In this document: in pieces, positions 16,989 to 45,066 of the stretch | Layout of the letters: the number at the start of each line of letters is the position of its first letter | Position numbering within the stretch: the first letter of the stretch is position 1 | From: an uncultured Alphaproteobacteria bacterium | GTDB taxonomy: Bacteria; Pseudomonadota; Alphaproteobacteria; Methylaequorales; Methylaequoraceae | Assembly: GCA_902542925.1 (NCBI GenBank) | Contig: CACBWF010000003.1 | Coordinates: 1 to 48,128 of the forward strand | Direction: 5' to 3' | DNA: 48,128 nt | The notes under the pieces: model-generated | What the model was told of the DNA's origin: nothing | Databases searched by the model: none | Seen by the model: only the letters and a program-made list of their open reading frames with translations | Translations under genes and position numbers: made by a program

Positions 16989-18071
16989 TTATTCATCATT
17001 GAGTTTTCTTATTGAGAGTTTTTTCATTTTTTCAATTAAAGTGGTTCGATTAATCTTTAAACTATCAGCGCTTTTTGTAACAGAACCACTATTTACTTGA
17101 AGAGCAGCTTCAATTAAATTAATTTCAATTTCACTAAGATGTCTTCTTAAATCAATTTTATCCATATATTCAAACCATTTTCTGTAATGTTTTGGGTGAG
17201 GTAATTGAGAAAGATTCTCATTTTGTTTAGTTATATTGTTATTTGATTCTTTAGTAAGCGGTAAATCTCCGGTCATGTCCCATAATCCCTCCTTTTCTTC
17301 AATTCTATCAGGAAGGCTAATTTTAATAAGATTTTCTTTTACATTATTTGATTTTATAATTGTTTTCGGAAAAATAATTGCAGCCCTCTCAATTACATTT
17401 TTAAGTTCTCTAACGTTGCCTGGCCAAATATATTCCTGCAACGCCCTTATTGCAGAGGTATCAAATTTGGGTACTAATTCTTGATTCAATGAAATTTCAT
17501 TAATTATATGGTCTACCAGAATGGGTATATCTTCCTTCCTTTCAGAAAGTGTTGGTATTTCAATTGGAAAGACATTTATTCTAAAGAAAAGATCTGCTCT
17601 AAATGTACCATCATCTATTTTTTTTTCAATGTTTTGATGGGTTGCGCAAACTAATCTTAAATCTAACTTAATCTCTTTTTTCCCACCAACTCTTTGAATT
17701 GACTTTGTTTCAATTGCTCTTAATAATTTTGCTTGCAGAGACATTGGCATGTCACCAATTTCATCAAGGAAGAGTGTTCCATTATTTGATAATTCGAACC
17801 TACCCTGTCTAAGAGAGTCAGCGCCTGTAAAAGATCCCTTTTCATGACCAAAAAGTTCAGATTCAAGAAGTTCTGAAGGTATTGCTGCACAGTTCACATT
17901 GATTAAATCACCCCCTCTTTCTGAAGAATGATGAATTGCTTGCGCAACTACATCCTTTCCACACCCAGTCTCGCCTCTTAACAAAACAGTAGAATTAGAT
18001 TTTGAAACTAAATTAACTAATTTTTTTAATTCTAGAGTTGCTTCACTATTACCTTTTATTATTTCTTCCAT
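16989..18071 (-). CDS. fleQ: Flagellar master sigma54 activator FleQ (AAA+ plus HTH, no N-terminal regulatory domain)
   Basis: GETGCGK, ESELFGHEKGSFTGA, WPGNVREL, FleQ-type HTH INRTTLIEKMKK; divergent from fleT-fliE. Confidence 0.88.
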   Translation of the reverse strand: MEEIIKGNSEATLELKKLVNLVSKSNSTVLLRGETGCGKDVVAQAIHHSSERGGDLINVNCAAIPSELLESELFGHEKGSFTGADSLRQGRFELSNNGTLFLDEIGDMPMSLQAKLLRAIETKSIQRVGGKKEIKLDLRLVCATHQNIEKKIDDGTFRADLFFRINVFPIEIPTLSERKEDIPILVDHIINEISLNQELVPKFDTSAIRALQEYIWPGNVRELKNVIERAAIIFPKTIIKSNNVKENLIKISLPDRIEEKEGLWDMTGDLPLTKESNNNITKQNENLSQLPHPKHYRKWFEYMDKIDLRRHLSEIEINLIEAALQVNSGSVTKSADSLKINRTTLIEKMKKLSIRKLNDE

Positions 18072-18272: not shown

Positions 18273-19439
18273 ATGGAAGAATTATTTTTAATAAACAATG
18301 AATTTAGAAATGAAGATTTAGAACTAATTAGAAAATTTCTAGAATTTAGAAAAATTTCATCAAATATAAAAAGTTATGATGAGATAAAAGACGAAAACAT
18401 TGGTAAATCAAAAATTATTACTAACAAATTATTTGAAGAAAAGATTGGTGGTAGAGAAAAACTTATCAAATTTGGTAGAAATATTGGTTGTTCAAAAATT
18501 TTAATTTTAGAATCAAATTCTGATAAATACTCTATTCAATCACATTTAGGAGAATCTGTTTTAAATATTAGTTTTAAAAAAATAAATGATTTTATTCTTG
18601 AATTGTTGATTAATATAATCTCTCAACAAAAGTTTTCATTTGCAGATCCAAGAACATTGAGTTTGATTAAATTAGCAAAAAGAGTTGCTGAAACTGATGT
18701 CACTGTTTTTGTTCACGGTCCTACAGGAACTGGAAAAGAGGTCATTTCAAATTACATACATCAAAATTCAAAAAGAAAAGACAATCCATTTATCGCAGTA
18801 AACTGTGCTGCTATACCGGAGAATATGCTAGAAGCCATGTTATTTGGTCACGAAAAAGGTGCATTTACAGGAGCATCATCTGCTAATAAAGGAATTTTTA
18901 GGGCAGCCGATACTGGAACACTTCTTTTAGATGAGATTTCTGAAATGCCATTATCTCTTCAAGCTAAGCTTCTACGTGTCTTACAAGAGAAAAAAGTTAC
19001 ACCTATTGGAGGTCAAAGAGACATAGATGTAGATGTAAGAGTAATTGCAACTACTAATAGAAATATGATGAGTGAAGTAAAAAATAAAACTTTTAGAGAA
19101 GACTTATATTACAGGCTTAATGTATTTCCGATTGAAACAACCAATTTATCAGAACGACCAGGAGATATCATACCAATAAGCCTTGCATTGTTAAAACGCC
19201 ACGTTGAAAGTTCTTCAAAGATTCCTTTTATAAGTGAAAGTGCTCAAAAAGTACTTACCAATTATAGCTGGCCAGGTAATGTCAGGGAACTTGAAAATGT
19301 TCTTCAAAGAGCGATTGTATTATCAAAAGACAATATGATTACTGACCTGGATATCATGATTGATAACGATATCGAGACTCAAATTCAAAATTTAAATCAT
19401 AATGCTGAAGAAGCAAATAAAGCTGCTTTAGGTTTTTAG
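18273..19439 (+). CDS. fleT: sigma54 activator FleT (AAA+ without C-terminal HTH)
   Basis: GPTGTGKE, GAFTGA, WPGNVRELEN; ends shortly after the AAA+ domain with no HTH; first gene before fliE, as in R. sphaeroides Fla1. Confidence 0.85.
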   Translation: MEELFLINNEFRNEDLELIRKFLEFRKISSNIKSYDEIKDENIGKSKIITNKLFEEKIGGREKLIKFGRNIGCSKILILESNSDKYSIQSHLGESVLNISFKKINDFILELLINIISQQKFSFADPRTLSLIKLAKRVAETDVTVFVHGPTGTGKEVISNYIHQNSKRKDNPFIAVNCAAIPENMLEAMLFGHEKGAFTGASSANKGIFRAADTGTLLLDEISEMPLSLQAKLLRVLQEKKVTPIGGQRDIDVDVRVIATTNRNMMSEVKNKTFREDLYYRLNVFPIETTNLSERPGDIIPISLALLKRHVESSSKIPFISESAQKVLTNYSWPGNVRELENVLQRAIVLSKDNMITDLDIMIDNDIETQIQNLNHNAEEANKAALGF

Positions 19440-28730: not shown

Positions 28731-29102
28731 ATGACAGAATTTTCAGGCCCATCTTTTGATCAATATTTAATTGTGATGGGGTTTTTTGTAGCAATTTTTG
28801 CAATCTTTTTATTTATTAAAAAGAATAGATACATTATTTCTAACAAACTACAGAATCAAAAAAGAATGAAGGTGAGTGATGTTACTCTTTTAGGTCAAGG
28901 AGACAGAGCCCTAATTTTAAAGATAGATGATAAGGATTTCCTTTTTATTTCAGGAAAAAATTCTGGAGCTATTCTTACTGAGATTAAAAATGAAAATAAT
29001 TCTAAAGTAAGCAACATAGAACAAACAAAGTTAGAAACAAAAAATAAAAAAGCTTTTGAAATAAGAAGTTTGATTGAAAAAAGGTTAAAAAATGAAAAGT
29101 AA
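28731..29102 (+). CDS. fliO: Flagellar biogenesis protein FliO
   Basis: Single TM followed by MKVSDVTLLGQGDRALILKIDDKDFL; between fliN and fliP. Confidence 0.82.
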   Translation: MTEFSGPSFDQYLIVMGFFVAIFAIFLFIKKNRYIISNKLQNQKRMKVSDVTLLGQGDRALILKIDDKDFLFISGKNSGAILTEIKNENNSKVSNIEQTKLETKNKKAFEIRSLIEKRLKNEK

Positions 29103-32296: not shown

Positions 32297-32505
32297 AAAA
32301 AGCTAATATTCTTGATTGTAAAAAATGTAAACATTTGTATGTTACTTATGATAAGTTTTATCCTTGGGGATGCAAAGCATTCGGTTTTAAATCAAAAAAT
32401 TATCCTTATAATGAAGTTTACTCGATTTCTGGCATGAAATGTGCTCTATTTAGTATGAATAATAAATTTGGACAAAAAACAGATAAAAAGGGAAGATTTG
32501 CATGA
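32290..32505 (+). CDS. Small four-Cys putative metal-binding protein
   Basis: CKKCKH..YVTYD..PWGCKAFGFKSK..SGMKC pattern; overlaps both neighbours. Confidence 0.75.
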   Translation: MVKKANILDCKKCKHLYVTYDKFYPWGCKAFGFKSKNYPYNEVYSISGMKCALFSMNNKFGQKTDKKGRFA

Positions 32506-33227
32506 ATACGCAACTTAATACGATGCAAGAAAGTATCAAGATCGCTCTAGATGCAGCAGATGCTGCTACGGATGTTACGTCTGAATACAAAAGAATGAAA
32601 AACGAATACATAAAAGCGGAGCAAAAAGTGAAAGAAATACACAAATATACAACAATAATTTTTTCGGCTTCAATTGCAACAGCAGTTGTATCAGTTATTT
32701 TAATAGGCTTGTTATATTTTAAATCATTATCTGAACTTGAAGATATGACTAGTACTAGTAAGGAAGCTCTTGTAGTTTTTGCTGAAAATGTCGAAAATGT
32801 AAATAAAGCTGTTGATAACATGAATCAAAGTTTAAATAAACACTCTGATTTAGTTAATGCAAATATTGAAATCAAAGATAAGCTAAATATGTTAATGAGC
32901 GCTATTGAAAAAAATGACAAAAATTTGATGGTAAGTCTTTCAAAAGAGGTTTCAAATCTTTCAAAAGAAATTTCATCTTCTCTAAAAGCTGAGACTGGTA
33001 AACTGAATCAAAATATTCAAGAAAGCGACGTAATGACATCTGCTAAGGTTAACAAAGCCGTAGAAAAACTTCTTAACGATACAAATAAAAAACAAAACGC
33101 TAAACTGCTAAAGGAGCTTTCTAATAATACTTCAAGTTTGACAGCAGCGCTTGAAGCAATTTCTAAACAAAATAAAGTATTAGTTAAAGAAATTGTTGAT
33201 CAAAAAGAAAGTATAACCTATCCTTAA
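32502..33227 (+). CDS. motF: Probable MotF-like Fla1 motor protein
   Basis: 241 aa, single TM at about residues 51-73, coiled-coil periplasmic part, downstream of flhB. Size, topology and position agree with R. sphaeroides MotF as recalled; not aligned. Confidence 0.6.
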   Translation: MNTQLNTMQESIKIALDAADAATDVTSEYKRMKNEYIKAEQKVKEIHKYTTIIFSASIATAVVSVILIGLLYFKSLSELEDMTSTSKEALVVFAENVENVNKAVDNMNQSLNKHSDLVNANIEIKDKLNMLMSAIEKNDKNLMVSLSKEVSNLSKEISSSLKAETGKLNQNIQESDVMTSAKVNKAVEKLLNDTNKKQNAKLLKELSNNTSSLTAALEAISKQNKVLVKEIVDQKESITYP

Positions 33228-33235
33228 TTTTTAAA

Positions 33236-34018
33236 ATGGAGCAAGTAAATAAGTCCGAAAGTTTTCTTAAAATTGATAGTTTTACAAGGAAAACTGTTGC
33301 TCAATCCTTATTACTAAAAGATAATGATGTAATTGTTGCTCTCGACAATAATCTTTATTTAAAAGGCGAAAATGCACTAATTGAGGATTTAAATTTACTT
33401 AAAAAAGAAGAGAAAAAAACGATACTTACAATTTTCAGAGAAGGTGGTTTTTTTGACGTACTAGTTTCTGGTAGCTTAGGAGCTAAATTTATATCTACTG
33501 ATAATGATGAAACAAAATTAATTTCTGAAAAGTTTTCAAAAAAAGAAATTTTCGATCAAATAGATTTAAAAGAATATATTGCAATGAGGGATTTAACTCA
33601 CAATTATGAAATAATATGCAAATCTAAGTCTTTGTTTGCTGGTTTAATGCCACCGATGTGGCTTGCATACCACAGTAAGTGGTGGTTAATATCTCTTTTT
33701 GCAGTATTAAGTTTTTTACTCATTTCTACTAATTTTTGGATTTTCCTTTTTGGTTGGGTATGTGTGAGTATTTATTGTTACATAGGTCAATTAGAGCTTT
33801 TAATAAGTTTTGCACTTCTGTCCGGGAAAGCATACTCAATGATACTATGCGCAACTGATATGGATCACGCTCAAAAGGTTGTGAGGGAACATAATCCCAA
33901 AGCCAAATACAAGGTGACGAGGTTAGGAGATCCTATTAAATCCGATCAAGAAAATAATAGTAAAGAAGATAAAAATCTAAAAAATAAGATTTCTGATTCA
34001 CAAGAAGCTTTGATATAA
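33236..34018 (+). CDS. Hypothetical membrane protein: PDZ-like N-terminus plus DUF2628-like TM region
   Basis: AQSLLLKDNDVIVALDN...ILTIFREG resembles the PDZ core; FAGLMPPMWLAYHSKW resembles DUF2628. Confidence 0.6.
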   Translation: MEQVNKSESFLKIDSFTRKTVAQSLLLKDNDVIVALDNNLYLKGENALIEDLNLLKKEEKKTILTIFREGGFFDVLVSGSLGAKFISTDNDETKLISEKFSKKEIFDQIDLKEYIAMRDLTHNYEIICKSKSLFAGLMPPMWLAYHSKWWLISLFAVLSFLLISTNFWIFLFGWVCVSIYCYIGQLELLISFALLSGKAYSMILCATDMDHAQKVVREHNPKAKYKVTRLGDPIKSDQENNSKEDKNLKNKISDSQEALI

Positions 34019-34054
34019 TTATAAAGTAAATTATATAAAATTAAGAGGTTATTG

Positions 34055-34663
34055 ATGGTCGTAGCAAAAAACGAACAATATTCTGTTCAAGCAGAAACAT
34101 TAATGAAAGCAGCAATTGAAGATTATCTTGAGCTAATAAAAGAAATTCAAGCTTCAAATGCAAATATGAAATTGATAAAAAGTATTAAAATTACTGTGAA
34201 CGGTAAACCAAGACGGTTAGTTGATGTCGGTGACCTAAAAACGGGTGAAAGTGAAAATCAATTAATTCTTTTAGTTTTTAATACAGATCACGTAGAACTT
34301 CTTTTAGACCAGATTGATGAGCTACAATTTGAATCATCAGTTGATGGTCAATTCATTAAAATTAATGTTCCTGATCCAAGCTATAAACAATTAATGGAAG
34401 TAGTAGACGACTTAAATAGAAAAAAAGGAAGTTGTATTGGAAGACTTACCAAAGCTAAATCTGAAGCAACTACAAGGGCAAGAACTGCAGTTGAAAACGA
34501 GTTTATTGAGCAAGCAGTTGCATCTAGGGCTACAAAAGTTTGCGATGAATTCTTAAGTCAATACACAGAAAAAGTAAATGAAATAACCACAGAAAAGATT
34601 CTTGAAATTTTAGGTGAAGATTATTTTAATAAATATAAAACTGAAGAATTAGACGAATTTTAG
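34055..34663 (+). CDS. Degenerate ribosome recycling factor (RRF)-like protein
   Basis: Nearly ungapped manual alignment to E. coli RRF over about 175 aa, with the conserved Arg residues lost; GAGG RBS 6 nt before ATG 34055. Confidence 0.72.
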   Translation: MVVAKNEQYSVQAETLMKAAIEDYLELIKEIQASNANMKLIKSIKITVNGKPRRLVDVGDLKTGESENQLILLVFNTDHVELLLDQIDELQFESSVDGQFIKINVPDPSYKQLMEVVDDLNRKKGSCIGRLTKAKSEATTRARTAVENEFIEQAVASRATKVCDEFLSQYTEKVNEITTEKILEILGEDYFNKYKTEELDEF

Positions 34664-34665
34664 TC

Positions 34666-35301
34666 TCAAGCATCAATAGAAATTCTATTTTTAGACACTT
34701 CAGTTTTATTATCATAAAGCGATGATAAATTTTTGTATTTATTTCTGTTAGTTGGTTGATAGCTTAGCGGTGACCACTTTGGGTAATCAAATGTCATTCC
34801 CTTAACAGCTAACTTATCATGCTCTTTGAATTCTTTTTCTACATTGTCGGTTTTATTTTGTTTTTCAGAAAAATCAACATTTTTTAAGTTTAAATCATTT
34901 TCTACTTTATTTATCTCGTTTTTCTTATCTTTCCATAGATTACTTATACCCAATGTATCAAATGCAAGTTCTGTAGGTGTTTTATCAAATAACTTTTCGA
35001 AAACCCAATTACCAAAACCAGCAATTGCACCAATTGGACCTCCATATATAAATCCGCCAGCACTTGATTGAACTAAGTCTCTATCTGAGTCAGGTTTGTC
35101 AGAATTGATACTTGAGTATATACCACTTATAATAGGTATATTTTGAAGGGGATTAACAAGACCTTTTATCCAATCTAGAAACTTAGACCTATTCGTGGGA
35201 CTTTCATTTTTAATACCAAAATTTACTTTATTTTTTTTATCTATATTAGTGTTGAAAGCACTTTTGGAATTAAAACTATGTAAATGACTTTTTTCTATCA
35301 T
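34666..35301 (-). CDS. Conserved hypothetical protein (NPLQxIP...GGxxYGGPIG motif), third gene of the motAB operon
   Basis: VNPLQNIPIISGIY and AGGFIYGGPIGAIAG glycine-zipper-like core; 4 bp after the motB stop. Confidence 0.75.
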   Translation of the reverse strand: MIEKSHLHSFNSKSAFNTNIDKKNKVNFGIKNESPTNRSKFLDWIKGLVNPLQNIPIISGIYSSINSDKPDSDRDLVQSSAGGFIYGGPIGAIAGFGNWVFEKLFDKTPTELAFDTLGISNLWKDKKNEINKVENDLNLKNVDFSEKQNKTDNVEKEFKEHDKLAVKGMTFDYPKWSPLSYQPTNRNKYKNLSSLYDNKTEVSKNRISIDA

Positions 35302-37397: not shown

Positions 37398-37874
37398 ATG
37401 AAAAAAAACTTTAGCCTAATTACAGTCTTATTGAACATTTTTTTTAGTATTAATCATTTAAATGCAACTAACCTTATAGACAAAGGTTATTATGTAGTTG
37501 ATCTCAAACAAAAAGTAGATTGGTTAAAATGTTCTGCTGGACAGCAATGGGATGACACAAATTGTAGTGGTGAAGCTATCAAATTAAATCTTGAAGAAGC
37601 CGAAATTGCATTAAATCAACTCAATGAACAACTAGAAGGTGAATGGAGACTTCCAACTAAGAAAGAATTGAAAAGTTTAGTATGTAGCGATTGTACAGGA
37701 GCAAAAATTAATAAAAAATATTTTCCAAACACACCTGCAGAACCTTTTTGGACCTCACAGAGAAATTGGTGGTCGCCCAAATTTTATTGGTCAGTTAATT
37801 TTTTTACTGGGCATGTTTATGGTAGATTTGTACCGGAAAAAAGATTATTTTTGAGATTTCTTAGAGATCGCTAA
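37398..37874 (+). CDS. Secreted DUF1566 (Lcl C-terminal-like) domain protein
   Basis: Signal peptide, WLKCSAGQQW, WRLPTKKELKSL, FPNTP..FWTS. Confidence 0.88.
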   Translation: MKKNFSLITVLLNIFFSINHLNATNLIDKGYYVVDLKQKVDWLKCSAGQQWDDTNCSGEAIKLNLEEAEIALNQLNEQLEGEWRLPTKKELKSLVCSDCTGAKINKKYFPNTPAEPFWTSQRNWWSPKFYWSVNFFTGHVYGRFVPEKRLFLRFLRDR

Positions 37875-38092
37875 TCTTTTTTACTTTGAAAATATTGGAG
37901 TAATTTTATTACAAATACAAATAATCCTGATATTAAAACAAATATTGCAAAATTAAGCGGCGTGACAAATTTCAAAAGGTGCAGTTGGTCTGAGGCTGTA
38001 AGTGCAACAATTATTATTAAAAGAACTGAAAATATAAAGTATCTGATCGATAAGCATAAAAAACATCCTTTTTTATCATCATTTTTTGACAT
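37871..38092 (-). CDS. Small two-TM hypothetical protein
   Basis: ATG at 38092 overlaps the upstream gene end; CFLC followed by two hydrophobic helices. Confidence 0.6.
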   Translation of the reverse strand: MSKNDDKKGCFLCLSIRYFIFSVLLIIIVALTASDQLHLLKFVTPLNFAIFVLISGLFVFVIKLLQYFQSKKD

Positions 38093-38621
38093 AACACTCA
38101 AATTTTAAAGATTTACTATATTTACACACGTCATTAGCAAAAGATATTTTATTAGTTGGAAGTACAAGCCTATATAAACCATTTTTTTTGTCCTGAATTA
38201 TTAATAAATTAATATTTTTAAATTTTGGTTTGAGCTTATTTTCAATTAACTTTTCTAATTCAATAAGATTTTTTTTTGTTTTATATACCCCATATTGAAC
38301 AAAATATTGTTGAATATTAGGCGGTAAACTTTCTATAATGACTTTTCCTAAATTTTTATTAAGTTCTTTTTTCACAATTTTTTTTTCTTTTAAAGAATTT
38401 TGTTCAGACAATTTTTTTTCAGCAAGTGATTTCTTTTCTTGAATAACCGAAGTTAAAATTTTGTCTCTGTCAATTTTAAATTTTTTGTCAAATACGTCTA
38501 GTTGATTGTTAATAATATTTTTTGATTTATTTAAGTTTTCTTGCGTCAAAAAAATAACATTCAAGAAAATCAAAATAAAAATAATAGAAATTATATTAAA
38601 AGGAAGTAAAAAAATCATCAA
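38079..38621 (-). CDS. Membrane-anchored protein with a degenerate SPOR domain
   Basis: N-terminal TM; C-terminal YFVQYGVY...GLYRLV...ANDVC..K....ECYV pattern typical of alphaproteobacterial SPOR domains. Confidence 0.62.
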   Translation of the reverse strand: MMIFLLPFNIISIIFILIFLNVIFLTQENLNKSKNIINNQLDVFDKKFKIDRDKILTSVIQEKKSLAEKKLSEQNSLKEKKIVKKELNKNLGKVIIESLPPNIQQYFVQYGVYKTKKNLIELEKLIENKLKPKFKNINLLIIQDKKNGLYRLVLPTNKISFANDVCKYSKSLKFECYVKK

Positions 38622-38817: not shown

Positions 38818-40272
38818 ATGCAAATAACACAGAACCTCAAATTAAAACAGAGTCAGTCATTGGTAATGACTCCTCAATTACAACAAGCTATAAAATTATT
38901 ACAACTAACAAATTTAGAGCTATGTGATTTAGTTAATAAAGAATTAGAGGAAAATCCTTTTCTTGAAGACAGCAAATTTGAAGAAAACAAAGGTGAGGTA
39001 GATCATGAAAATGAGACACATAACCTCGAAGACGAGTTTGTCAGTAAAGATGCAATGGATTCTGAAATAAAATCAGAAGCATATGATAATTGCTGGGATA
39101 AAGAATTAAATTGTAATAATAAATCACAAAATTATGAAACAATCGATGCTGGTTCTGTTGCTGAACAAACGGTTAGTGAGGAAATAACACTGAAGTCAGT
39201 TCTCACAGATCAAGCTAATTTAGAATTTGATAAAGATGATGAAAAATTTATTTCTCGAGTTTTGATTGATTATATTGATTCATCTGGTTGGATGACAAAA
39301 GATTTAAAAGAAATTTCTGAAATTATTGGATGCGAAGAAAATAAGGTTCAAACTATAGTTGATAGAATGAAAGATTTTGAACCCAGCGGTGTTTTTGCTC
39401 AAAATCTACAAGAATGTTTGACAATTCAATTAAAAGCAAAAGAATTATTTAATGATAAAATTAAAATACTACTAGAAAATTTTGATTTGTTAGCAGCCGG
39501 TGAAATTAAGACTATTTGTAAGCAAGGTAATTGTTCAAGAGAAGAGATTGCTAAAAATTTAGCTGTTATTCGACAAATGAACCCTAAACCAGGGAATATT
39601 TATGCTGCACCTGAAAATAATATTTTTCACCCAGATGTTATTGTAAAACGCAAAAATAATACTTGGGAAGTTGAATTAAATCAAAGTACACTGCCTAAAA
39701 TTGTAGTTAATGAAAATTACGCAAATCAATTAAACAATTTAAATTGTAGTCAGGGTGATAAAAAGTTTATTACAGAATCAATTGGATCTGCCAAATGGTT
39801 AGTTAAAGCAATTGAGCAAAGGAATATAACCACACTCAAAATTAGTAGTGAAATTGTTCAACAGCAAAAAGAGTTTTTTGAAAAAGGTTTATCATACTTA
39901 AAACCTATGATACTCAAAGATGTCGCAAAAAAGATTGGAATGCATGAAAGTACGGTAAGTCGAGTAACAAGTGCAAAACTTATGCTTACACCAAGAGGTA
40001 TATTTGATATGAAACACTTTTTTAGTGCATCAATTAATAGTACAGAAAAGGGTGAATCATATTCAGCGGCTTCAGTAAGAGAAACTCTCAAAAATTTGAT
40101 TTCAAGTGAACCGCTTAATCAGCCATTTAGTGATGAGGTAATTGTTTCAAAACTTCAGAAAGAGGGAATCAACCTTGCTAGGAGAACAGTTGCTAAATAC
40201 AGAGAATTAATGTGTATTCCATCATCAGCAGAGAGAAGAAAAATAATGAAAATTCAAAATATAGGCATTTAA
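38818..40272 (+). CDS. rpoN: RNA polymerase sigma-54 factor
   Basis: MTPQLQQAIKLLQL, ELEENPFLE, HESTVSRV, RpoN box ARRTVAKYRE. Confidence 0.98.
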   Translation: MQITQNLKLKQSQSLVMTPQLQQAIKLLQLTNLELCDLVNKELEENPFLEDSKFEENKGEVDHENETHNLEDEFVSKDAMDSEIKSEAYDNCWDKELNCNNKSQNYETIDAGSVAEQTVSEEITLKSVLTDQANLEFDKDDEKFISRVLIDYIDSSGWMTKDLKEISEIIGCEENKVQTIVDRMKDFEPSGVFAQNLQECLTIQLKAKELFNDKIKILLENFDLLAAGEIKTICKQGNCSREEIAKNLAVIRQMNPKPGNIYAAPENNIFHPDVIVKRKNNTWEVELNQSTLPKIVVNENYANQLNNLNCSQGDKKFITESIGSAKWLVKAIEQRNITTLKISSEIVQQQKEFFEKGLSYLKPMILKDVAKKIGMHESTVSRVTSAKLMLTPRGIFDMKHFFSASINSTEKGESYSAASVRETLKNLISSEPLNQPFSDEVIVSKLQKEGINLARRTVAKYRELMCIPSSAERRKIMKIQNIGI

Positions 40273-40290
40273 TAAATATTAAATCAAATT

Positions 40291-40470
40291 TTAATTTATC
40301 ACGCTTTTAATTGTTTTGAAAACTTCAATGTTTTTGTCCATAAAATGTGAAACAGGATATATTTCTTTAAAAGATTCTTGTTCTTTATCATTAAAATATA
40401 CGATTTCAACAAATGGTGCACTGTTTAATTTTGTTTTATTTGAAAGTTTAATTTCTTTTAAATTATTCAT
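40291..40470 (-). CDS. 59-aa hypothetical protein with its own sigma54 promoter
   Basis: AGGAGA RBS before ATG 40470 and a -24/-12 promoter just upstream; the ORF-track start at 40521 lies upstream of that promoter. Confidence 0.7.
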   Translation of the reverse strand: MNNLKEIKLSNKTKLNSAPFVEIVYFNDKEQESFKEIYPVSHFMDKNIEVFKTIKSVIN

Positions 40471-40494
40471 AATTATTCTCCTTTTGAGGAATAC

Positions 40495-40510
40495 TGCAGA
40501 TTTTATGCCA
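40495..40510 (-). promoter_or_regulatory. sigma54 promoter of the 59-aa ORF
   Basis: TGGCATAAAATCTGCA with exact spacing. Confidence 0.78.
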
Positions 40511-40542
40511 TAGATCAGCATAAAAAATAAAACTTATTTCAT

Positions 40543-41196
40543 TTATGAATTTTCTTCTTGGAGAATTTTTTTGAAATACATAATTTTTAAATCTGTTCTA
40601 CTTTTTACTTTTGATTTTTCTTTCTGTGATAAAATTTGTCTATCTTGTAAATCTTGATTATATCTACCTTCTCTATTTTTTTTCCAATGCTCATGGACTC
40701 TTTTTAAATAAACTTTCATTCTTATTGGATTTGACGAATGGTATCGTGATATTGCTAGGTTCCAACTTTTGTACTTCAAAAATAATTTTTTGAGAAATCT
40801 CCCTGCATAGTAGATATTTTCTTCTGGATCAATCATGTCTTTCAAATTTTTAAACATCCTACCATGATACCTATAATTTAATTGCATACACCCAATATCT
40901 ATATTTTGTTCATTCGAATAAATAGCTTTATCCAGATAATTGGTCATTTCTTTTTTTGAGTCAAAAAAAATTGATTTTCCATTAACGTTTAGTGACCAAG
41001 GCCAAGGTTGATAAATACCGTTTTTTGTAATTCCTGTCTCTGTAAATGAAATTGATGAAAGTAATTTATTTGGAATCTTAAACTCTTTTTCAACCTTGGA
41101 GGCAATAGTGTAGCAATCATCCAACTTTTGAGCATTAGTATTATTTAATACAATCAAATTAAATATTAGGATTATTGGGATTGAATAAAAATTCAT
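40543..41196 (-). CDS. Lytic transglycosylase (SltF/PleA-like SLT family)
   Basis: Signal peptide; IPNKLLSSISFTETG (catalytic Glu), PWPWSLN, IDIGCMQLNYRYH, AISRYHS. Confidence 0.9.
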   Translation of the reverse strand: MNFYSIPIILIFNLIVLNNTNAQKLDDCYTIASKVEKEFKIPNKLLSSISFTETGITKNGIYQPWPWSLNVNGKSIFFDSKKEMTNYLDKAIYSNEQNIDIGCMQLNYRYHGRMFKNLKDMIDPEENIYYAGRFLKKLFLKYKSWNLAISRYHSSNPIRMKVYLKRVHEHWKKNREGRYNQDLQDRQILSQKEKSKVKSRTDLKIMYFKKILQEENS

Positions 41197-41206
41197 TCAA
41201 TATTTT

Positions 41207-41222
41207 TGCAATTACAGTGCCA
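41207..41222 (-). promoter_or_regulatory. Consensus sigma54 promoter of the lytic transglycosylase
   Basis: TGGCACTGTAATTGCA, a perfect TGGCAC-N5-TTGCA, inside a 33-bp gap. Confidence 0.9.
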
Positions 41223-41229
41223 CTTAAAA

Positions 41230-42570
41230 TTAGTCTTTAAGAATCGAACTGCTTAAAAGATTTCTTCCTATGGAAATAAAATTGTAAGGATTAATATGTT
41301 TTTTATTAACAATAATTTCGTAATGTAAATGGGCTCCAACAGCTCTTCCAGTTGCTCCCATTTTACCAACTATTTCTCCTTCCTTAACTTGAGTACCTTT
41401 TTTAACAAGAATTTTGTGGAGATGCCCATACAAAGTCTCAATACCATGTTTATGTTTAATTTTAATTGTTTTTCCAAATGACCCATTTCTTCCAGAAAAT
41501 ATTACAGTACCATTTGCAGAAGCTCGAACCTCTTCTTGCCAAGTACCAGCCATATCTATACCTTTATGCATTTGTCTTATTTTTGTTTTTGGATGAGTTC
41601 TTAACCCGTAAGGGCTTGAAACATAATAATACTGCATTGGTGGTTTAAGTGGTAAATAGACAATAGCATCTTTTAAATTTTCCAGAAACTGAAATCTTGC
41701 TGTAACAGAATTTATTAACTCTGATTCGTTATTATTATCGAGCTCTTTTTTTAAAATTGAATCTATTTCTTTAAGATTAATATTATCTGGACTAAGTTTT
41801 AAAGTTTTAAAAACATTGAGTAACTCCATAATTTCAAGATCAATTTTGCGAGTAAACTGTGTAATTTTTGTTTTGTTGTTACGAGGTGCTGAAAATGGCA
41901 GCACTGGCAATGAATTATAATTTCTCTTTAAAATTTCTTTTTTAATTTCTCTTTCATTTAAATTTGAATTTTGTTTTTCACTGATTCTTTTGTTGGACTC
42001 TTCAATTGGAACCATTTCAGGACTAGCTAAACTTACAAATTCATCAAATACAGATTCATCACTTAAAGAGACATTTGGATGAATTCCAAAATCAAATTCA
42101 TTAATAATATCTTTAAAATTTGAATATTTTTCAATAGCATAATTTTTAATTATTTCTAAATTTACGAAGTCGTCTTTTTTATCCTCAATATCAGCGATAA
42201 CTTTTTCTTTTTTAATAGTTGAATCAACTATACTTTCAGTAACAATGGCCTGCTCTGCCAAGTTTTTTAAAACCTCAACTTCAGATTTGGTAAATTGACT
42301 TGTTTGGTTTATCGAATTTTTGTAAAGCATTAAATGAGTAAATACATTAATTACACCAAAGAGTGCAAATTGTAATATTTTAAAAGCAACAAATATCGAT
42401 AACAAAAATCCTGAAATATAATGCTTGATATTAAATACAACTTCAATTGGACCCTTTTTTGTAAAAAAAAGAAACCTTCTTTCTTTAAGTATTTCTTGAA
42501 GATTTTTTGTGACATTCATTTCACCAAATCTTGGACTGGATTTTATTTGATCAATAAAGTTTCTCAGCAT
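41230..42570 (-). CDS. Membrane-anchored M23 metallo-endopeptidase (LmdC-like architecture)
   Basis: Cytoplasmic N-terminus with ERRFLF, TM helix, coiled coil, HKGID and HLH zinc motifs. Confidence 0.9.
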   Translation of the reverse strand: MLRNFIDQIKSSPRFGEMNVTKNLQEILKERRFLFFTKKGPIEVVFNIKHYISGFLLSIFVAFKILQFALFGVINVFTHLMLYKNSINQTSQFTKSEVEVLKNLAEQAIVTESIVDSTIKKEKVIADIEDKKDDFVNLEIIKNYAIEKYSNFKDIINEFDFGIHPNVSLSDESVFDEFVSLASPEMVPIEESNKRISEKQNSNLNEREIKKEILKRNYNSLPVLPFSAPRNNKTKITQFTRKIDLEIMELLNVFKTLKLSPDNINLKEIDSILKKELDNNNESELINSVTARFQFLENLKDAIVYLPLKPPMQYYYVSSPYGLRTHPKTKIRQMHKGIDMAGTWQEEVRASANGTVIFSGRNGSFGKTIKIKHKHGIETLYGHLHKILVKKGTQVKEGEIVGKMGATGRAVGAHLHYEIIVNKKHINPYNFISIGRNLLSSSILKD

Positions 42571-42582
42571 GATTGTTCTCCC

Positions 42583-43131
42583 TTATTTGAGATAGAGAAC
42601 TACAACTAGCATAATATTTGTTAATAATTGCATTAACATTATTAAAAGCATTAATTTCCAAGATATCGGGTTATTGATATTAAGACTAAATTGTGGGAAT
42701 TTTTCAGTAACTTTATCGAATTCAACTTTTTTATTTTGACTATCAACCGTATTTTTCAATTGATAGTTTTCAAAGGATTTTTTTGATTTAGTTTTTTCTT
42801 TTTGATTGATATTAATCGATGATTGCAAATTTTCATCATTTTTCTTTTCAATATTCTCATTTAATGACTCAACATTCTTAAAATTTGGTGAATTAACTTT
42901 TGATCCATCAAATTCAGTTTTTTTATTTTCAAGACTATCGGATTTTTTTAAAAAATTGTCGTTAGTATTTTTGTTTGAGGGTTTTAAATCTTTTTGATTT
43001 TCTAAATTGCCTTTTTTTAAAATAATTTTTTCATTTGGTTTTGAATTATCTTCAGAAGGAGAAGCACCATCATCAATTTGTGTTCTCATTCTTTCAATTC
43101 TTTGTCTAATATCTACTACTTGTTCAGCCAT
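42583..43131 (-). CDS. Tail-anchored hypothetical protein
   Basis: Short N-terminal helix, long N/K/S-rich disordered linker, C-terminal TM ending VVVLYLK. Confidence 0.75.
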   Translation of the reverse strand: MAEQVVDIRQRIERMRTQIDDGASPSEDNSKPNEKIILKKGNLENQKDLKPSNKNTNDNFLKKSDSLENKKTEFDGSKVNSPNFKNVESLNENIEKKNDENLQSSININQKEKTKSKKSFENYQLKNTVDSQNKKVEFDKVTEKFPQFSLNINNPISWKLMLLIMLMQLLTNIMLVVVLYLK

Positions 43132-43165
43132 AATAATTAATTAAACTTATCAAAAATGAATTCAA

Positions 43166-43181
43166 TGCATTTGTTGCGCCA
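43166..43181 (-). promoter_or_regulatory. sigma54 promoter of the tail-anchored protein/M23 operon
   Basis: TGGCGCAACAAATGCA with exact GG-N10-GC spacing in an otherwise very AT-rich gap. Confidence 0.72.
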
Positions 43182-43208
43182 AAACTAAAATTTTGATAAA
43201 GTTTTATT

Positions 43209-43217
43209 TGTTATAAT
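43209..43217 (+). promoter_or_regulatory. Candidate extended -10 sigma70 promoter of the bactofilin operon
   Basis: TGTTATAAT, 24 bp before the ATG; weak evidence in an AT-rich genome. Confidence 0.4.
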
Positions 43218-43241
43218 AACTTATTCTGATAAGGTTACAAA

Positions 43242-43649
43242 ATGTTTTCTAAAGACGATAAAGAATCTTTTAAATCTTCCGATTCAAGTGTTATAGGTAC
43301 CGAAATGCAGATTAATGGTAACATAAAGTGTCAAGGTAGTCTTGTGATTAAGGGTACTGTCAAAGGTAACATCGAATGTGACGAAATTAGACTTTCTTCT
43401 GAAGGTGTTCTTAAGGGTTCTATTAAATCAAAAGATTCAGAAATTTCTGGCAAATTTGAAGGTAATATTTTTTCAGATACAATTGCTATTGGTTCAACTG
43501 CTAGTATCAAAGGTGGTATTAACTACAATAGAATGCAGGCAGAACCTGGAGCTAAACTGGAGGTTGACTTTCTTTTAGGTTTGGAAGAGAAAACAAAGGT
43601 TTCAAAAAAAACTAACTTAGCCAAGTCGTTAAAAACTATAAAAGGATAA
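43242..43649 (+). CDS. Bactofilin (polymer-forming cytoskeletal protein) 1
   Basis: MFSK N-terminus, SVIG..MQINGNI, repeated (I/V)xG beta-helix turns, GAKLE. Confidence 0.92.
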   Translation: MFSKDDKESFKSSDSSVIGTEMQINGNIKCQGSLVIKGTVKGNIECDEIRLSSEGVLKGSIKSKDSEISGKFEGNIFSDTIAIGSTASIKGGINYNRMQAEPGAKLEVDFLLGLEEKTKVSKKTNLAKSLKTIKG

Positions 43650-43656
43650 ATAAATT

Positions 43657-44043
43657 ATGTCAGAAAATCAGTCTATAATTGGTAAAGATGTACTCTTTAA
43701 AGGTAAAATTACCAATTCTAAAACAATTGAAATACATGGAAGAGTTGAAGCAGATATAAAATCTGAAAAGATAACCCTTGGTAAAACCGCAAATTATGAC
43801 GGTGGAATTCAGGCCGATTTGGTTGTAATATCTGGTAAATATCAAGGAAAGTTAAAAGCTGATTCTGTTTGGTTAACAGATTCTTCAGTAATTTCCGGTG
43901 AGATAAATTACAAATCTCTTCAAATGGATAGAGGTGCAGCCTTAAATTGCAGAGTTGTTCATAACTGGGATGAGAAAAAAATAAATAAAAGAAAAGATCA
44001 GAATTTTGAAGATGAAGGAACTGGAGAGTCAGATGAGAATTGA
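43657..44043 (+). CDS. Bactofilin 2
   Basis: SIIGKDVLFKGKI, IEIHGRVEADI, ISGEINYKSLQMDRGA. Confidence 0.92.
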   Translation: MSENQSIIGKDVLFKGKITNSKTIEIHGRVEADIKSEKITLGKTANYDGGIQADLVVISGKYQGKLKADSVWLTDSSVISGEINYKSLQMDRGAALNCRVVHNWDEKKINKRKDQNFEDEGTGESDEN

Positions 44044-44064
44044 CAATCTTAAAAAAGGTGAATC

Positions 44065-44382
44065 ATGAGTGATTTGACTTACATAAACAAAGAATTAACA
44101 ATGGAAGGTACCCTGCAAGCAAAAGAAAGCCAAGTGGTGGTTGCTGGTAAGTTTAAAGGGAATATTACTGCAAAAACTGTAATCTTAGAATCAACGAGTA
44201 TTTTTGACGGAATATTAAATGCTGAACATTTAAAGATCGAGGGGCAGGCTTCTGGTGAAGTCACTGCTGAGTTCCTAGAAATAACTGGCTCTGGAAACTT
44301 TGACGGCAAGCTCAAAACTAACTCATTATCAGTTGACATGGGGGCAAAAGTCTCAGGTAATGTAGGGAGAATTACTGGTTAA
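44065..44382 (+). CDS. Bactofilin 3 (core only)
   Basis: TYINKELTMEGTL, VVAGKFKGNI, LSVDMGAKVSG. Confidence 0.9.
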   Translation: MSDLTYINKELTMEGTLQAKESQVVVAGKFKGNITAKTVILESTSIFDGILNAEHLKIEGQASGEVTAEFLEITGSGNFDGKLKTNSLSVDMGAKVSGNVGRITG

Positions 44383-44638
44383 TTTTTGATATTTCCTGAC
44401 TTTTAATACAATTCTCAAAAAATTCTAAACTTTTTTTTGAACCTTCAAGTTGTTGAAGCTTCATAGAGGAAAATCTTCCAGCAGCTAAAGCAACTGCCCA
44501 ACTGTCGTTGTAGTATTGTGAATATTGGTTTAAAACCTTTTCAATATCATCTCTTATAAAAATATACAATTTTTTTTTATATTCTTCAGAATGCTTTAGT
44601 TTATTTGGGAAATATATTATATTAGAATTAATTGACAT
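44372..44638 (-). CDS. Hypothetical helical protein (88 aa)
   Basis: ATG 44638; N-terminal NIIYFP, core WAVALAAGRFSSMKLQQLEG. Confidence 0.65.
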   Translation of the reverse strand: MSINSNIIYFPNKLKHSEEYKKKLYIFIRDDIEKVLNQYSQYYNDSWAVALAAGRFSSMKLQQLEGSKKSLEFFENCIKSQEISKINQ

Positions 44639-44673: not shown

Positions 44674-45066
44674 ATGAAACAAAATAAAAATTCAAAAACA
44701 CCCCAACTACCTGTTAAACGGTCTGAAAACCCAATGGTTAAGGTTTCTAAACATGGGAATCCTCTAGATATTTCGGAGAAATTACAACATTTTAAAAATA
44801 GAGATGAAGTAAGGAAGTTCTTACCTGATATACTCGGAAGAGTATTAGCAAGGATTTGGATAGATTCCAATTTTAGAGAACAATTCTCAACAGATCCTCA
44901 AAAAACCCTAGAATTCAATGGAGTAATATTACCGGATGATATGACTATTGAATTTCAAAAACCAAATTCTGATAGGCCTAGAATTGTTGTTTATGAACAA
45001 AAACCTAATTCAAAATTTAAACTGAGAGTTCTTTACCTACAGTTAGTTATGATGGCTGGAAGGTGA
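44674..45066 (+). CDS. Hypothetical protein with an NHLP / nitrile hydratase alpha-like leader segment
   Basis: GRVLARIWIDSNFREQFSTDPQKTLEFNGVILPDDMTIEF resembles the ARAWxDxxF...xDP...LxExG..LP motif. Confidence 0.6.
   Translation: MKQNKNSKTPQLPVKRSENPMVKVSKHGNPLDISEKLQHFKNRDEVRKFLPDILGRVLARIWIDSNFREQFSTDPQKTLEFNGVILPDDMTIEFQKPNSDRPRIVVYEQKPNSKFKLRVLYLQLVMMAGR

Follow-up and report, generated by a model that had tools for sequence, protein, structure and literature searches.

Why does a group of genes for bactofilins and predicted peptidoglycan enzymes stand directly beside rpoN and a flagellar gene cluster, and what would switch it on? We address this question for a 48,128-nt stretch of DNA from an uncultured alphaproteobacterium (assembly GCA_902542925.1, contig CACBWF010000003.1), called the window throughout; it is the entire contig C3 of a source genome of 872 kb that is 54% complete and has 29% G+C. 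The module in question comprises an M23 peptidase, an SLT-domain lytic transglycosylase (SLT), a tail-anchored protein of 182 aa (TA182), a 59-aa protein (orf59) and three bactofilins (bac1, bac2 and bac3). We propose, with a probability of roughly 60%, that it is a bactofilin-guided peptidoglycan-editing module of the BacA-LmdC type which, in a flagellated marine alphaproteobacterium, has come to belong to the sigma-54 regulon. A first-pass annotation of the same DNA had identified these seven genes next to rpoN, and all seven identities hold on open reading frame (ORF) calls, Pfam and, for TA182, hydrophobicity.

Module genes and kinship with BacA-LmdC

The genes 3' of rpoN run on the minus strand (orf59, SLT, M23 peptidase, TA182), and the bactofilin genes diverge from them.

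38818-40272, plus strand: rpoN (PF04552, PF04963 and PF00309 all matched)
40291-40470, minus strand: orf59, a small conserved protein, with an AAGGAG Shine-Dalgarno sequence 7 nt upstream of the 59-aa start
40543-41196, minus strand: secreted SLT-domain lytic transglycosylase (PF01464, 25.8 bits against a cut-off of 21.3)
41230-42570, minus strand: LmdC-type M23 endopeptidase (PF01551, E 7.8e-31)
42583-43131, minus strand: TA182, tail-anchored protein of 182 aa, whose sole hydrophobic stretch (residues 156-182) is at the extreme C-terminus
43242-43649, plus strand: bac1, BacA-like bactofilin with an MFSK start and a K-rich tail (PF04519)
43657-44043, plus strand: bac2, bactofilin with a conserved C-terminal LNCxxxxNWDEK (PF04519)
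44065-44382, plus strand: bac3, short bactofilin without tails (PF04519)
44372-44638, minus strand: u109, small helical protein and tentative module member, syntenic in 17 of 17 family loci

Judged from its sequence, the M23 protein has the published LmdC architecture. It carries a transmembrane (TM) helix at residues 51-83 and the M23 domain at 333-428, and an AF2 model of low confidence (predicted local distance difference test score, pLDDT, 60.7) places a hairpin at E31-37/E40-46, a helix at 48-89 and helices at 95-304. The cytoplasmic stretch ERRFLxFTKxGPIExVFNxKHY is invariant in the alignment, and the hairpin stretch aligns with ERQLLIRQNGEVKY of gammaproteobacterial M23 tails. All 10 aligned sequences carry H335, D339, H414 and H416, residues that we take to make up the M23 metal and catalytic motifs HxxxD and HxH. 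In the published system the LmdC hairpin binds BacA (PMC10945521). Because the M23 protein has this architecture and bac1 has an MFSK start, the core of the locus corresponds to the published BacA-LmdC module.

In a scan of one genome per species with the M23 alignment, full-length relatives are restricted to the marine clade of the window (31 loci) and one more distant metagenome-assembled genome (MAG), L072. The next-best matches come from Colwellia, Pseudoalteromonas, Paraglaciecola and a Rhodobacterales MAG, and among the outside loci that we inspected an M23 gene directly precedes an MFSK-start bactofilin, with a matching hairpin tail, in 9 of 12 (eight gammaproteobacterial, one Rhodobacterales). 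The first-pass annotation knew of no published case of the seven-gene arrangement. Its bactofilin-M23 core is not new: the pairing is already known as the BacA-LmdC module, with adjacent bactofilin and M23 genes in 226 species (PMC10945521). The safest statement is that the module is of BacA-LmdC type with two additional bactofilins and a tail-anchored partner, and that its enzyme genes, along with orf59, would be read from sigma-54 promoters of a most likely flagellar kind. A search of the literature available to us returned no paper linking bactofilins to sigma-54; Figure 7-source data 1 of PMC10945521 (226 species) might hold comparable cases.

The bactofilins are three distinct proteins, as first described, running divergently from a 110-bp gap between TA182 and bac1 (43132-43241), so that bactofilin and M23 genes form one divergent locus with TA182 in between. 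Their PF04519 E-values range from 1e-19 to 1e-22, and each is a separate orthologous group retained both in L072 and in a second distant genome, G310. Among 28 listed family orthologues, bac1 starts with MFSK or MFSR in 27 and with MAMFSR in the remaining one, close to the membrane-targeting consensus MFSKKKK of bactofilins (PMC12448750); the motif is absent from bac2 and bac3. The best conserved of the three is bac2, with orthologues in L072 (50% identity) and G310 (40-42%).

TA182 consists of a conserved N-terminal helix (VxDIRxRIEKxR), a variable linker rich in K, N and E, and a nearly invariant C-terminal TM segment with the invariant polar residues Q168 and N172; its stop codon lies 12 nt ahead of the M23 start. 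It matches nothing in Pfam or NCBIfam, and the Atlas gives unnamed clusters alone. It is reminiscent of the third membrane partner that other bactofilin systems have. We considered it as an Api-like protein and rejected this on its reversed topology, going by the description of Api in preprint 10.64898/2026.10.09.758143. A complex prediction of bac2 with TA182 residues 1-45, run without controls, scored 0.00 against a mark of 0.32 and speaks neither for nor against a contact.

Two small proteins flank the module. The 59-aa start of orf59, which has the AAGGAG, is kept by its relatives, and the 76-aa reading (40291-40521) is over-extended. The orf59 family is very small (27 representatives among 1.84 billion proteins), has no Pfam or NCBIfam match, and has homologues in the family loci, L072 and G310. 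The u109 protein, which has no Pfam match, may be an eighth module member: homologues adjoin the module in L072 (4103-4405) and in G310 (locus L135, 9285-9599), with varying position and strand.

A second M23 peptidase of 505 aa (genome G000, contig C14, 1756-3273, minus strand) is present in every family genome searched and matches the domain of the module enzyme at E about 1e-28; it is probably a housekeeping endopeptidase.

Sigma-54 promoters, activators and synteny

Three canonically spaced -24/-12 promoters had been reported for the minus-strand genes. All three are present, one base away from the positions first given, and each has GG-N10-GC spacing.

43167-43181, minus strand: sigma-54-like site before TA182-M23, TGGCGCAACAAATGC, 2 mismatches
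41208-41222, minus strand: sigma-54 site before SLT, TGGCACTGTAATTGC, 0 mismatches
40496-40510, minus strand: sigma-54 -24/-12 site before orf59, TGGCATAAAATCTGC, 2 mismatches

For comparison we used the orthologous stretch of 17 other family genomes, whose M23 proteins are 51-59% identical to that of the window, bar one congener at 95%. The TA182 and SLT sites are each kept in 18 of 18 genomes and the orf59 site in 16 of 17 family loci, the 17th having an N in the site. Across relatives the promoter cores are 0.96-1.00 identical versus 0.56-0.70 for their flanks, and the TA182-directed site has the form TGGC[GT][CT]-N5-[AG]TGCA in 18/18 and in 28/28 family loci. The start codon lies 36 nt from the TA182 site, 12 nt from the SLT site and 26 nt from the orf59 site. 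At the SLT gene exactly 11 nt separate GC and ATG in all 18 genomes, with no Shine-Dalgarno sequence; this layout would be that of a leaderless mRNA from a sigma-54 promoter, and its invariant spacing would be difficult to account for if the promoter were idle. The window holds 30 sites at up to 2 mismatches versus a shuffle mean of 18.05, a count reached in none of 100 shuffles, and over the whole genome 17 of 131 sites are placed 8-70 nt ahead of a same-strand ORF start versus 4.1 expected (binomial P 8e-7). On this comparative evidence we regard the three promoters as real. A terminator and sigma-70 scan of the module gave nothing above shuffles.

Sigma-54 sites recur at the distant loci. 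They precede the orf59 homologues of L072 (4579-4593) and G310 (L135, 12698-12712), so that orf59 retains its own sigma-54 promoter beside rpoN in three lineages, and they precede motA in both. As a separate observation, the Rhodobacterales MAG L087, which has a canonical lmdC-bactofilin pair, carries TGGCTTTTTGGTTGC about 97 nt upstream of its M23 start; TGGCTTTTTGGTTGC shares the TGGCTT form with the family TA182 site, a single case that may be chance.

The window places the module beside a flagellar cluster, and the Fla1-type setting first described was confirmed by a fleQ-like gene, a fleT-like gene with fliEFGHIJ, fliK to flhB, and motAB.

16989-37278, both strands: Fla1-type flagellar cluster (Pfam)
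16989-18071, minus strand: fleQ-like activator gene (Pfam)
18273-19439, plus strand: fleT-like activator gene without a DNA-binding domain, heading fliE-F-G-H-I-J (Pfam)

After fliJ the cluster continues, by Pfam, with fliK-L-M-N, fliP, fliR, flhB, genes without assignment, motB and motA. Sigma-54-like sites precede fleT (18224), fliK (25184), an ORF at 28731 (28680), the gene for the 241-aa protein u241 (32430) and motA (37323). The best matches of an FlhF profile reached 75-89 bits, below its cut-off of 174.

Which activator would fire the module promoters? The rpoN gene is single-copy in 5 of 5 genomes searched, and the copy is the one beside the module. Each of three near-complete family genomes (96-99% complete) has four sigma-54 activators: a FleQ-like and FleT-like pair and two neighbouring genes of NtrC and NtrX size, which we infer to be NtrC-like and NtrX-like. 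By elimination the module promoters should depend on FleQ/FleT or NtrC. The remaining regulon appears to favour FleQ/FleT over NtrC: elsewhere in the genome, well-placed sites stand ahead of flgG-H-I-J and of an LPP20/FlgP-like lipoprotein gene (Pfam), and further ones, with translations read by eye, ahead of flgL, a 514-aa flagellin with fliD, sugar-nucleotide and glycosyltransferase genes, glnB-glnA and, doubtfully, clpX. With one rpoN and these activators alone, the module promoters are most likely fired by FleQ/FleT, and flagellar control is the likeliest arrangement. By eye, the 18 sigma-54 promoters share no upstream activator motif. Twenty seawater metatranscriptome runs hold 13-25% of sampled words.

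Several gene names on contig C1 come from reading translations and not from a family search. On that contig of G000, sites at 79183, 84419 and 85916 precede a TPR/glycosyltransferase-like gene, a gene for a 486-aa protein without assignment and an rmlA-like gene, all downstream of the flagellin genes; the stretch past the flagellin genes may be a sigma-54-controlled flagellin glycosylation island.

These data suggest how the module would work. Bac1 would bind the membrane through its MFSK start and, probably jointly with bac2 and bac3, polymerise along the inner face. The polymer would capture the cytoplasmic beta-hairpin of the M23 enzyme, so that peptidoglycan cross-links would be cut only there. 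TA182, predicted to share a transcript with M23, would be a further partner anchored in the membrane, which either tethers the enzyme or regulates it, and SLT would cut glycan strands within the same programme. TA182-M23, SLT and orf59 would each be transcribed from their own sigma-54 promoter, fired with the flagellar genes. The scaffold genes of the window genome are probably read from an ordinary promoter, and this would make the scaffold constitutive and the enzymes conditional.

Synteny supports the association. The order flhB...motBA-LclC-u76-u180-rpoN-orf59-SLT-M23-TA182, with bac1-2-3-u109 divergent, was found in 17/17 and 31/31 family loci, allowing for contig ends. An M23 orthologue is present in 19 of 24 family genomes; the other five (G005, G007, G015, G020 and G024) are without M23 orthologue, bactofilins and rpoN. 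The contigs of G024 stop at motA and u330, and G020 is without the motA-u330 stretch yet has fliP. These absences fit assembly gaps and carry no weight either way. Outside the family, a bac2 search of 401 genomes at class level returned a single orthologue-level match, in G310 (E 6e-31; next best 2e-17). In G310 (45% G+C) and L072 alike, bac3-bac2-bac1 are divergent from TA-M23, which are followed by orf59, rpoN, u76, LclC and motA; motB is also there in G310, where the sequence reaches far enough. Neither locus has SLT, and in these distant lineages rpoN is down to 40% identity.

Several observations weigh against the proposed module under flagellar sigma-54 control. The TA182 site has 2 mismatches to the strict consensus in the window and 3 in most relatives. 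No bac1-directed sigma-54 site is found in the window genome or its genus, which has a TGnTATAAT-like box before bac1 instead. The divergent gap of L072 holds a perfect site that is directed at bac1 and not at the TA gene, and the TA-directed candidate of G310 has GG-N11-GC spacing, one base too many. Around gammaproteobacterial LmdC-bactofilin pairs no flagellar gene lies within 10 kb, and a sigma-54 site was found in 0 of 8 of their lmdC-bactofilin loci. All genomes with the arrangement are kin, and the synteny may reflect inheritance rather than selection. On the protein side, P. aeruginosa LmdC has a Gly-Gly autoprocessing site (preprint 10.64898/2026.10.09.758143), and in an alignment read by eye the periplasmic linker of M23 shows no counterpart. 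Finally, NtrC is a candidate activator, as predicted from the gene complement.

The claim that the module belongs to the flagellar sigma-54 regulon probably holds on the enzyme side, which has the conserved sites, and does not stand for bac1 in the window genome. Elsewhere in the family, a one-mismatch site is directed at bac1 in 14 of 28 loci, with the ATG 11-12 nt away in 11 of them. With a TA-directed site in the family and a bac1-directed site in L072 and these 14 loci, sigma-54 control appears to be a theme of the clade in which the controlled operon varies. The linkage to rpoN and motAB likewise holds beyond the family for the module without SLT, in L072 and G310, and fails for gammaproteobacterial LmdC pairs; across 30 non-clade loci there was no flagellar or rpoN match within 10 kb, bar one ATPase match at 24% identity.

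The same observations could be read as an ordinary module for shape or growth that just happens to lie beside the flagellar genes, with -24/-12 elements that are served by NtrC or are weak or auxiliary and with no tie to motility. The existence of an NtrC-like activator and of a glnB-glnA sigma-54 site, the TATAAT-like box as the only one before the window bactofilin operon, and the LmdC-bactofilin pairs that elsewhere are unlinked to flagella all fit this explanation, and since synteny in the family extends over the entire 16-kb region, little can be made of adjacency by itself. We nevertheless consider it quite improbable: the three promoters are conserved in position and core while the family proteins are about 55% identical, all other well-placed sites bar glnB and the doubtful clpX precede genes of flagellar or flagellin-glycosylation type, and the rpoN/motAB linkage persists where rpoN is 40% identical.

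Four neighbouring features were noted. Within the flagellar cluster, 34052-34663 (plus strand) encodes a paralogue like ribosome recycling factor (PF01765, E 8e-11) that is syntenic family-wide and scores far under the frr equivalog cut-off. Three conserved proteins of 241, 260 and 211 aa that belong to no family are encoded in the flhB-motB interval at 32502-34018 (plus) and 34666-35301 (minus); the site at 32430 precedes the first, and they may be flagellar accessory proteins. An Lcl_C-domain protein and two small membrane proteins occupy the motA-rpoN interval (37398-37874, plus; 37871-38621, minus), and the Lcl_C protein and the first membrane protein hold the same place in L072 and G310. 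Finally, a 130-aa protein 3' of the bactofilins (44674-45066, plus) has a weak NHLP leader match (TIGR03793, 30 bits against a cut-off of 50.9).

The transglycosylase and a possible role in flagellar insertion

Does the module open the wall for the flagellum itself? In this alternative the bactofilin trio would mark or surround the nascent basal body and hold M23 and SLT there, opening peptidoglycan for rod and rings. In a closely related form, the three bactofilins would be a polar platform of the flagellar programme that sites a single Fla1-type flagellum, with M23, TA182 and a leaderless SLT cutting the opening. We consider the first form unlikely and rate the second the same.

The sigma-54 promoters and the location beside the flagellar cluster speak for insertion, and B. 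subtilis offers a precedent in BacE and BacF, which are required for hook and filament assembly (PMC4627819). The FlgJ protein is 103 aa and has the rod-binding domain alone (Pfam); since it has no hydrolase domain, SLT would take the place of SltF. The module SLT is also the only small SLT protein in the family genomes searched, the other being a Slt70-like enzyme of 650-680 aa. Its residues E53 (the catalytic Glu), C28 and C103 are invariant in the alignment, its AF2 model has pLDDT 84, and an N-terminal hydrophobic stretch was judged by eye to be a signal peptide. The top structural match is EtgA (8urn), a type III secretion transglycosylase, though a weak one (E 0.028, TM-score 0.59 by target), and a PDB profile search returned EtgA alone (E 0.073); the best 120 matches of a profile sequence search are exclusively clade members. 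FliP is present in 145 of 176 genomes with the SLT family versus 116 of 225 without it (odds ratio 4.4), a test that overstates the association because the genomes are kin and whose tallies include one unpublished genome per side.

Other observations argue against insertion. Thirty-one genomes have the SLT family without FliP, and G310 has FliP and no small SLT; the L072 and G310 loci keep bactofilins, TA and M23 without SLT. LmdC-type enzymes are known from morphogenesis and not from flagellar assembly (PMC10945521), and the motility defects of B. subtilis bactofilin mutants are strain-dependent (PMC9103452). SltF had been brought up as a precedent for the SLT, but the module enzyme cannot be classed as SltF. 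The family is widespread, with members in 176 of 401 sampled alphaproteobacterial genomes (profile, E <= 1e-25), and none of the 27 best outside loci has a flagellar neighbour within 1.5 kb; in 7 of the 27 an N-formylglutamate amidohydrolase gene adjoins the homologue. The module gene itself is outside flgG-H-I-J, whereas Rhodobacterales SltF genes sit inside flagellar gene clusters (PMC7277832, PMC12363192). A flagellar role for SLT is possible.

Output of the module and comparison with known systems

For a BacA-LmdC-type module under sigma-54 control, the physiological output that we favour, at somewhat below even odds, is curvature or pole shaping timed with motility, as in R. rubrum; wall opening at the flagellar site is the more doubtful second choice, and some other output takes up the rest. 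One further alternative is that the enzymes remodel the new pole after division, with polar organelles pre-installed and the flagellum as one beneficiary. The P. aeruginosa LmdC-Baf/type IV pili model and its twitching phenotypes suggest such a role (preprint 10.64898/2026.10.09.758143), as does the preference of bactofilins for curved membrane (PMC10945521), and sigma-54 timing would fit it equally well. We regard this as the least probable of the alternatives.

If the sigma-54-controlled BacA-LmdC reading is true, it would mean that local wall editing is coupled transcriptionally to motility. Bactofilin-LmdC modules are established determinants of shape, and little seems to be known about how cells time such dangerous wall-cutting enzymes. 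In the window genome nearly all other sigma-54 promoters serve the flagellum, and the enzyme genes of the module bear promoters of this kind as well; half of the related genomes place the scaffold operon under sigma-54 too. The locus would then be a simple test system in which one sigma factor and two activators act on three short promoters, and TA182 would be a new tail-anchored partner for bactofilin biology. As the clade is uncultured, marine and alphaproteobacterial with small genomes, the reading also concerns the way in which streamlined plankton make cells that are curved and swim. Were the polar-platform form true instead, the module would be a cytoskeleton-positioned flagellar insertion machine, of which we know no description for any Gram-negative bacterium.

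Among known systems, Helicobacter pylori CcmA, with the M23 peptidases Csd1/Csd2 and with Csd5/Csd7, combines bactofilin, peptidase and membrane partner in shaping a motile curved or helical cell. Its gene order and partners differ from those of the module, and we know of no report of sigma-54 promoters for it. B. subtilis BacE/BacF resemble the module as bactofilins tied to flagellar assembly (PMC4627819); unlike it they belong to a Gram-positive and are not known to have an M23 partner or a sigma-54 link.

SltF of the Rhodobacter sphaeroides Fla1 system (PMC7277832) shares with the module SLT its small size, secretion and SLT domain, a FlgJ in the genome that is rod-binding only, and a sigma-54 promoter in a Fla1-type system, which for the module is predicted from sequence. 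It differs in that sltF lies in the flgG operon and the module SLT in a bactofilin/M23 module, and in that alphaproteobacterial homologues of the latter are outside flagellar clusters, a comparison that covers gene neighbourhoods.

The P. aeruginosa genes lmdC and baf share their regulation with type IV pili, and twitching is reduced in mutants (preprint 10.64898/2026.10.09.758143). That system likewise joins an enzyme of LmdC type and a bactofilin with a third membrane protein, and it is co-regulated with a motility organelle, through the Vfr/cAMP regulon, as the module would be through sigma-54. Api has a short cytoplasmic part, a TM segment and a periplasmic helix and beta-sandwich, whereas TA182 is the opposite, cytoplasmic with a C-terminal anchor; the regulator of the module would be sigma-54 and its organelle the flagellum.

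Closest is BacA-LmdC of Hyphomonas neptunium and Rhodospirillum rubrum (PMC10945521). There too bactofilin genes stand beside a bitopic M23 endopeptidase with a cytoplasmic beta-hairpin tail, one TM segment, periplasmic helices and a C-terminal M23 domain, and the bactofilin is of MFSK type. The module differs in having three bactofilins, of which only bac1 carries the membrane-targeting motif, and in its divergent layout, with a tail-anchored gene between scaffold and enzyme genes. Its enzyme operon, moreover, has a predicted sigma-54 promoter and sits between rpoN and the flagellar cluster on one side and the bactofilin genes on the other.

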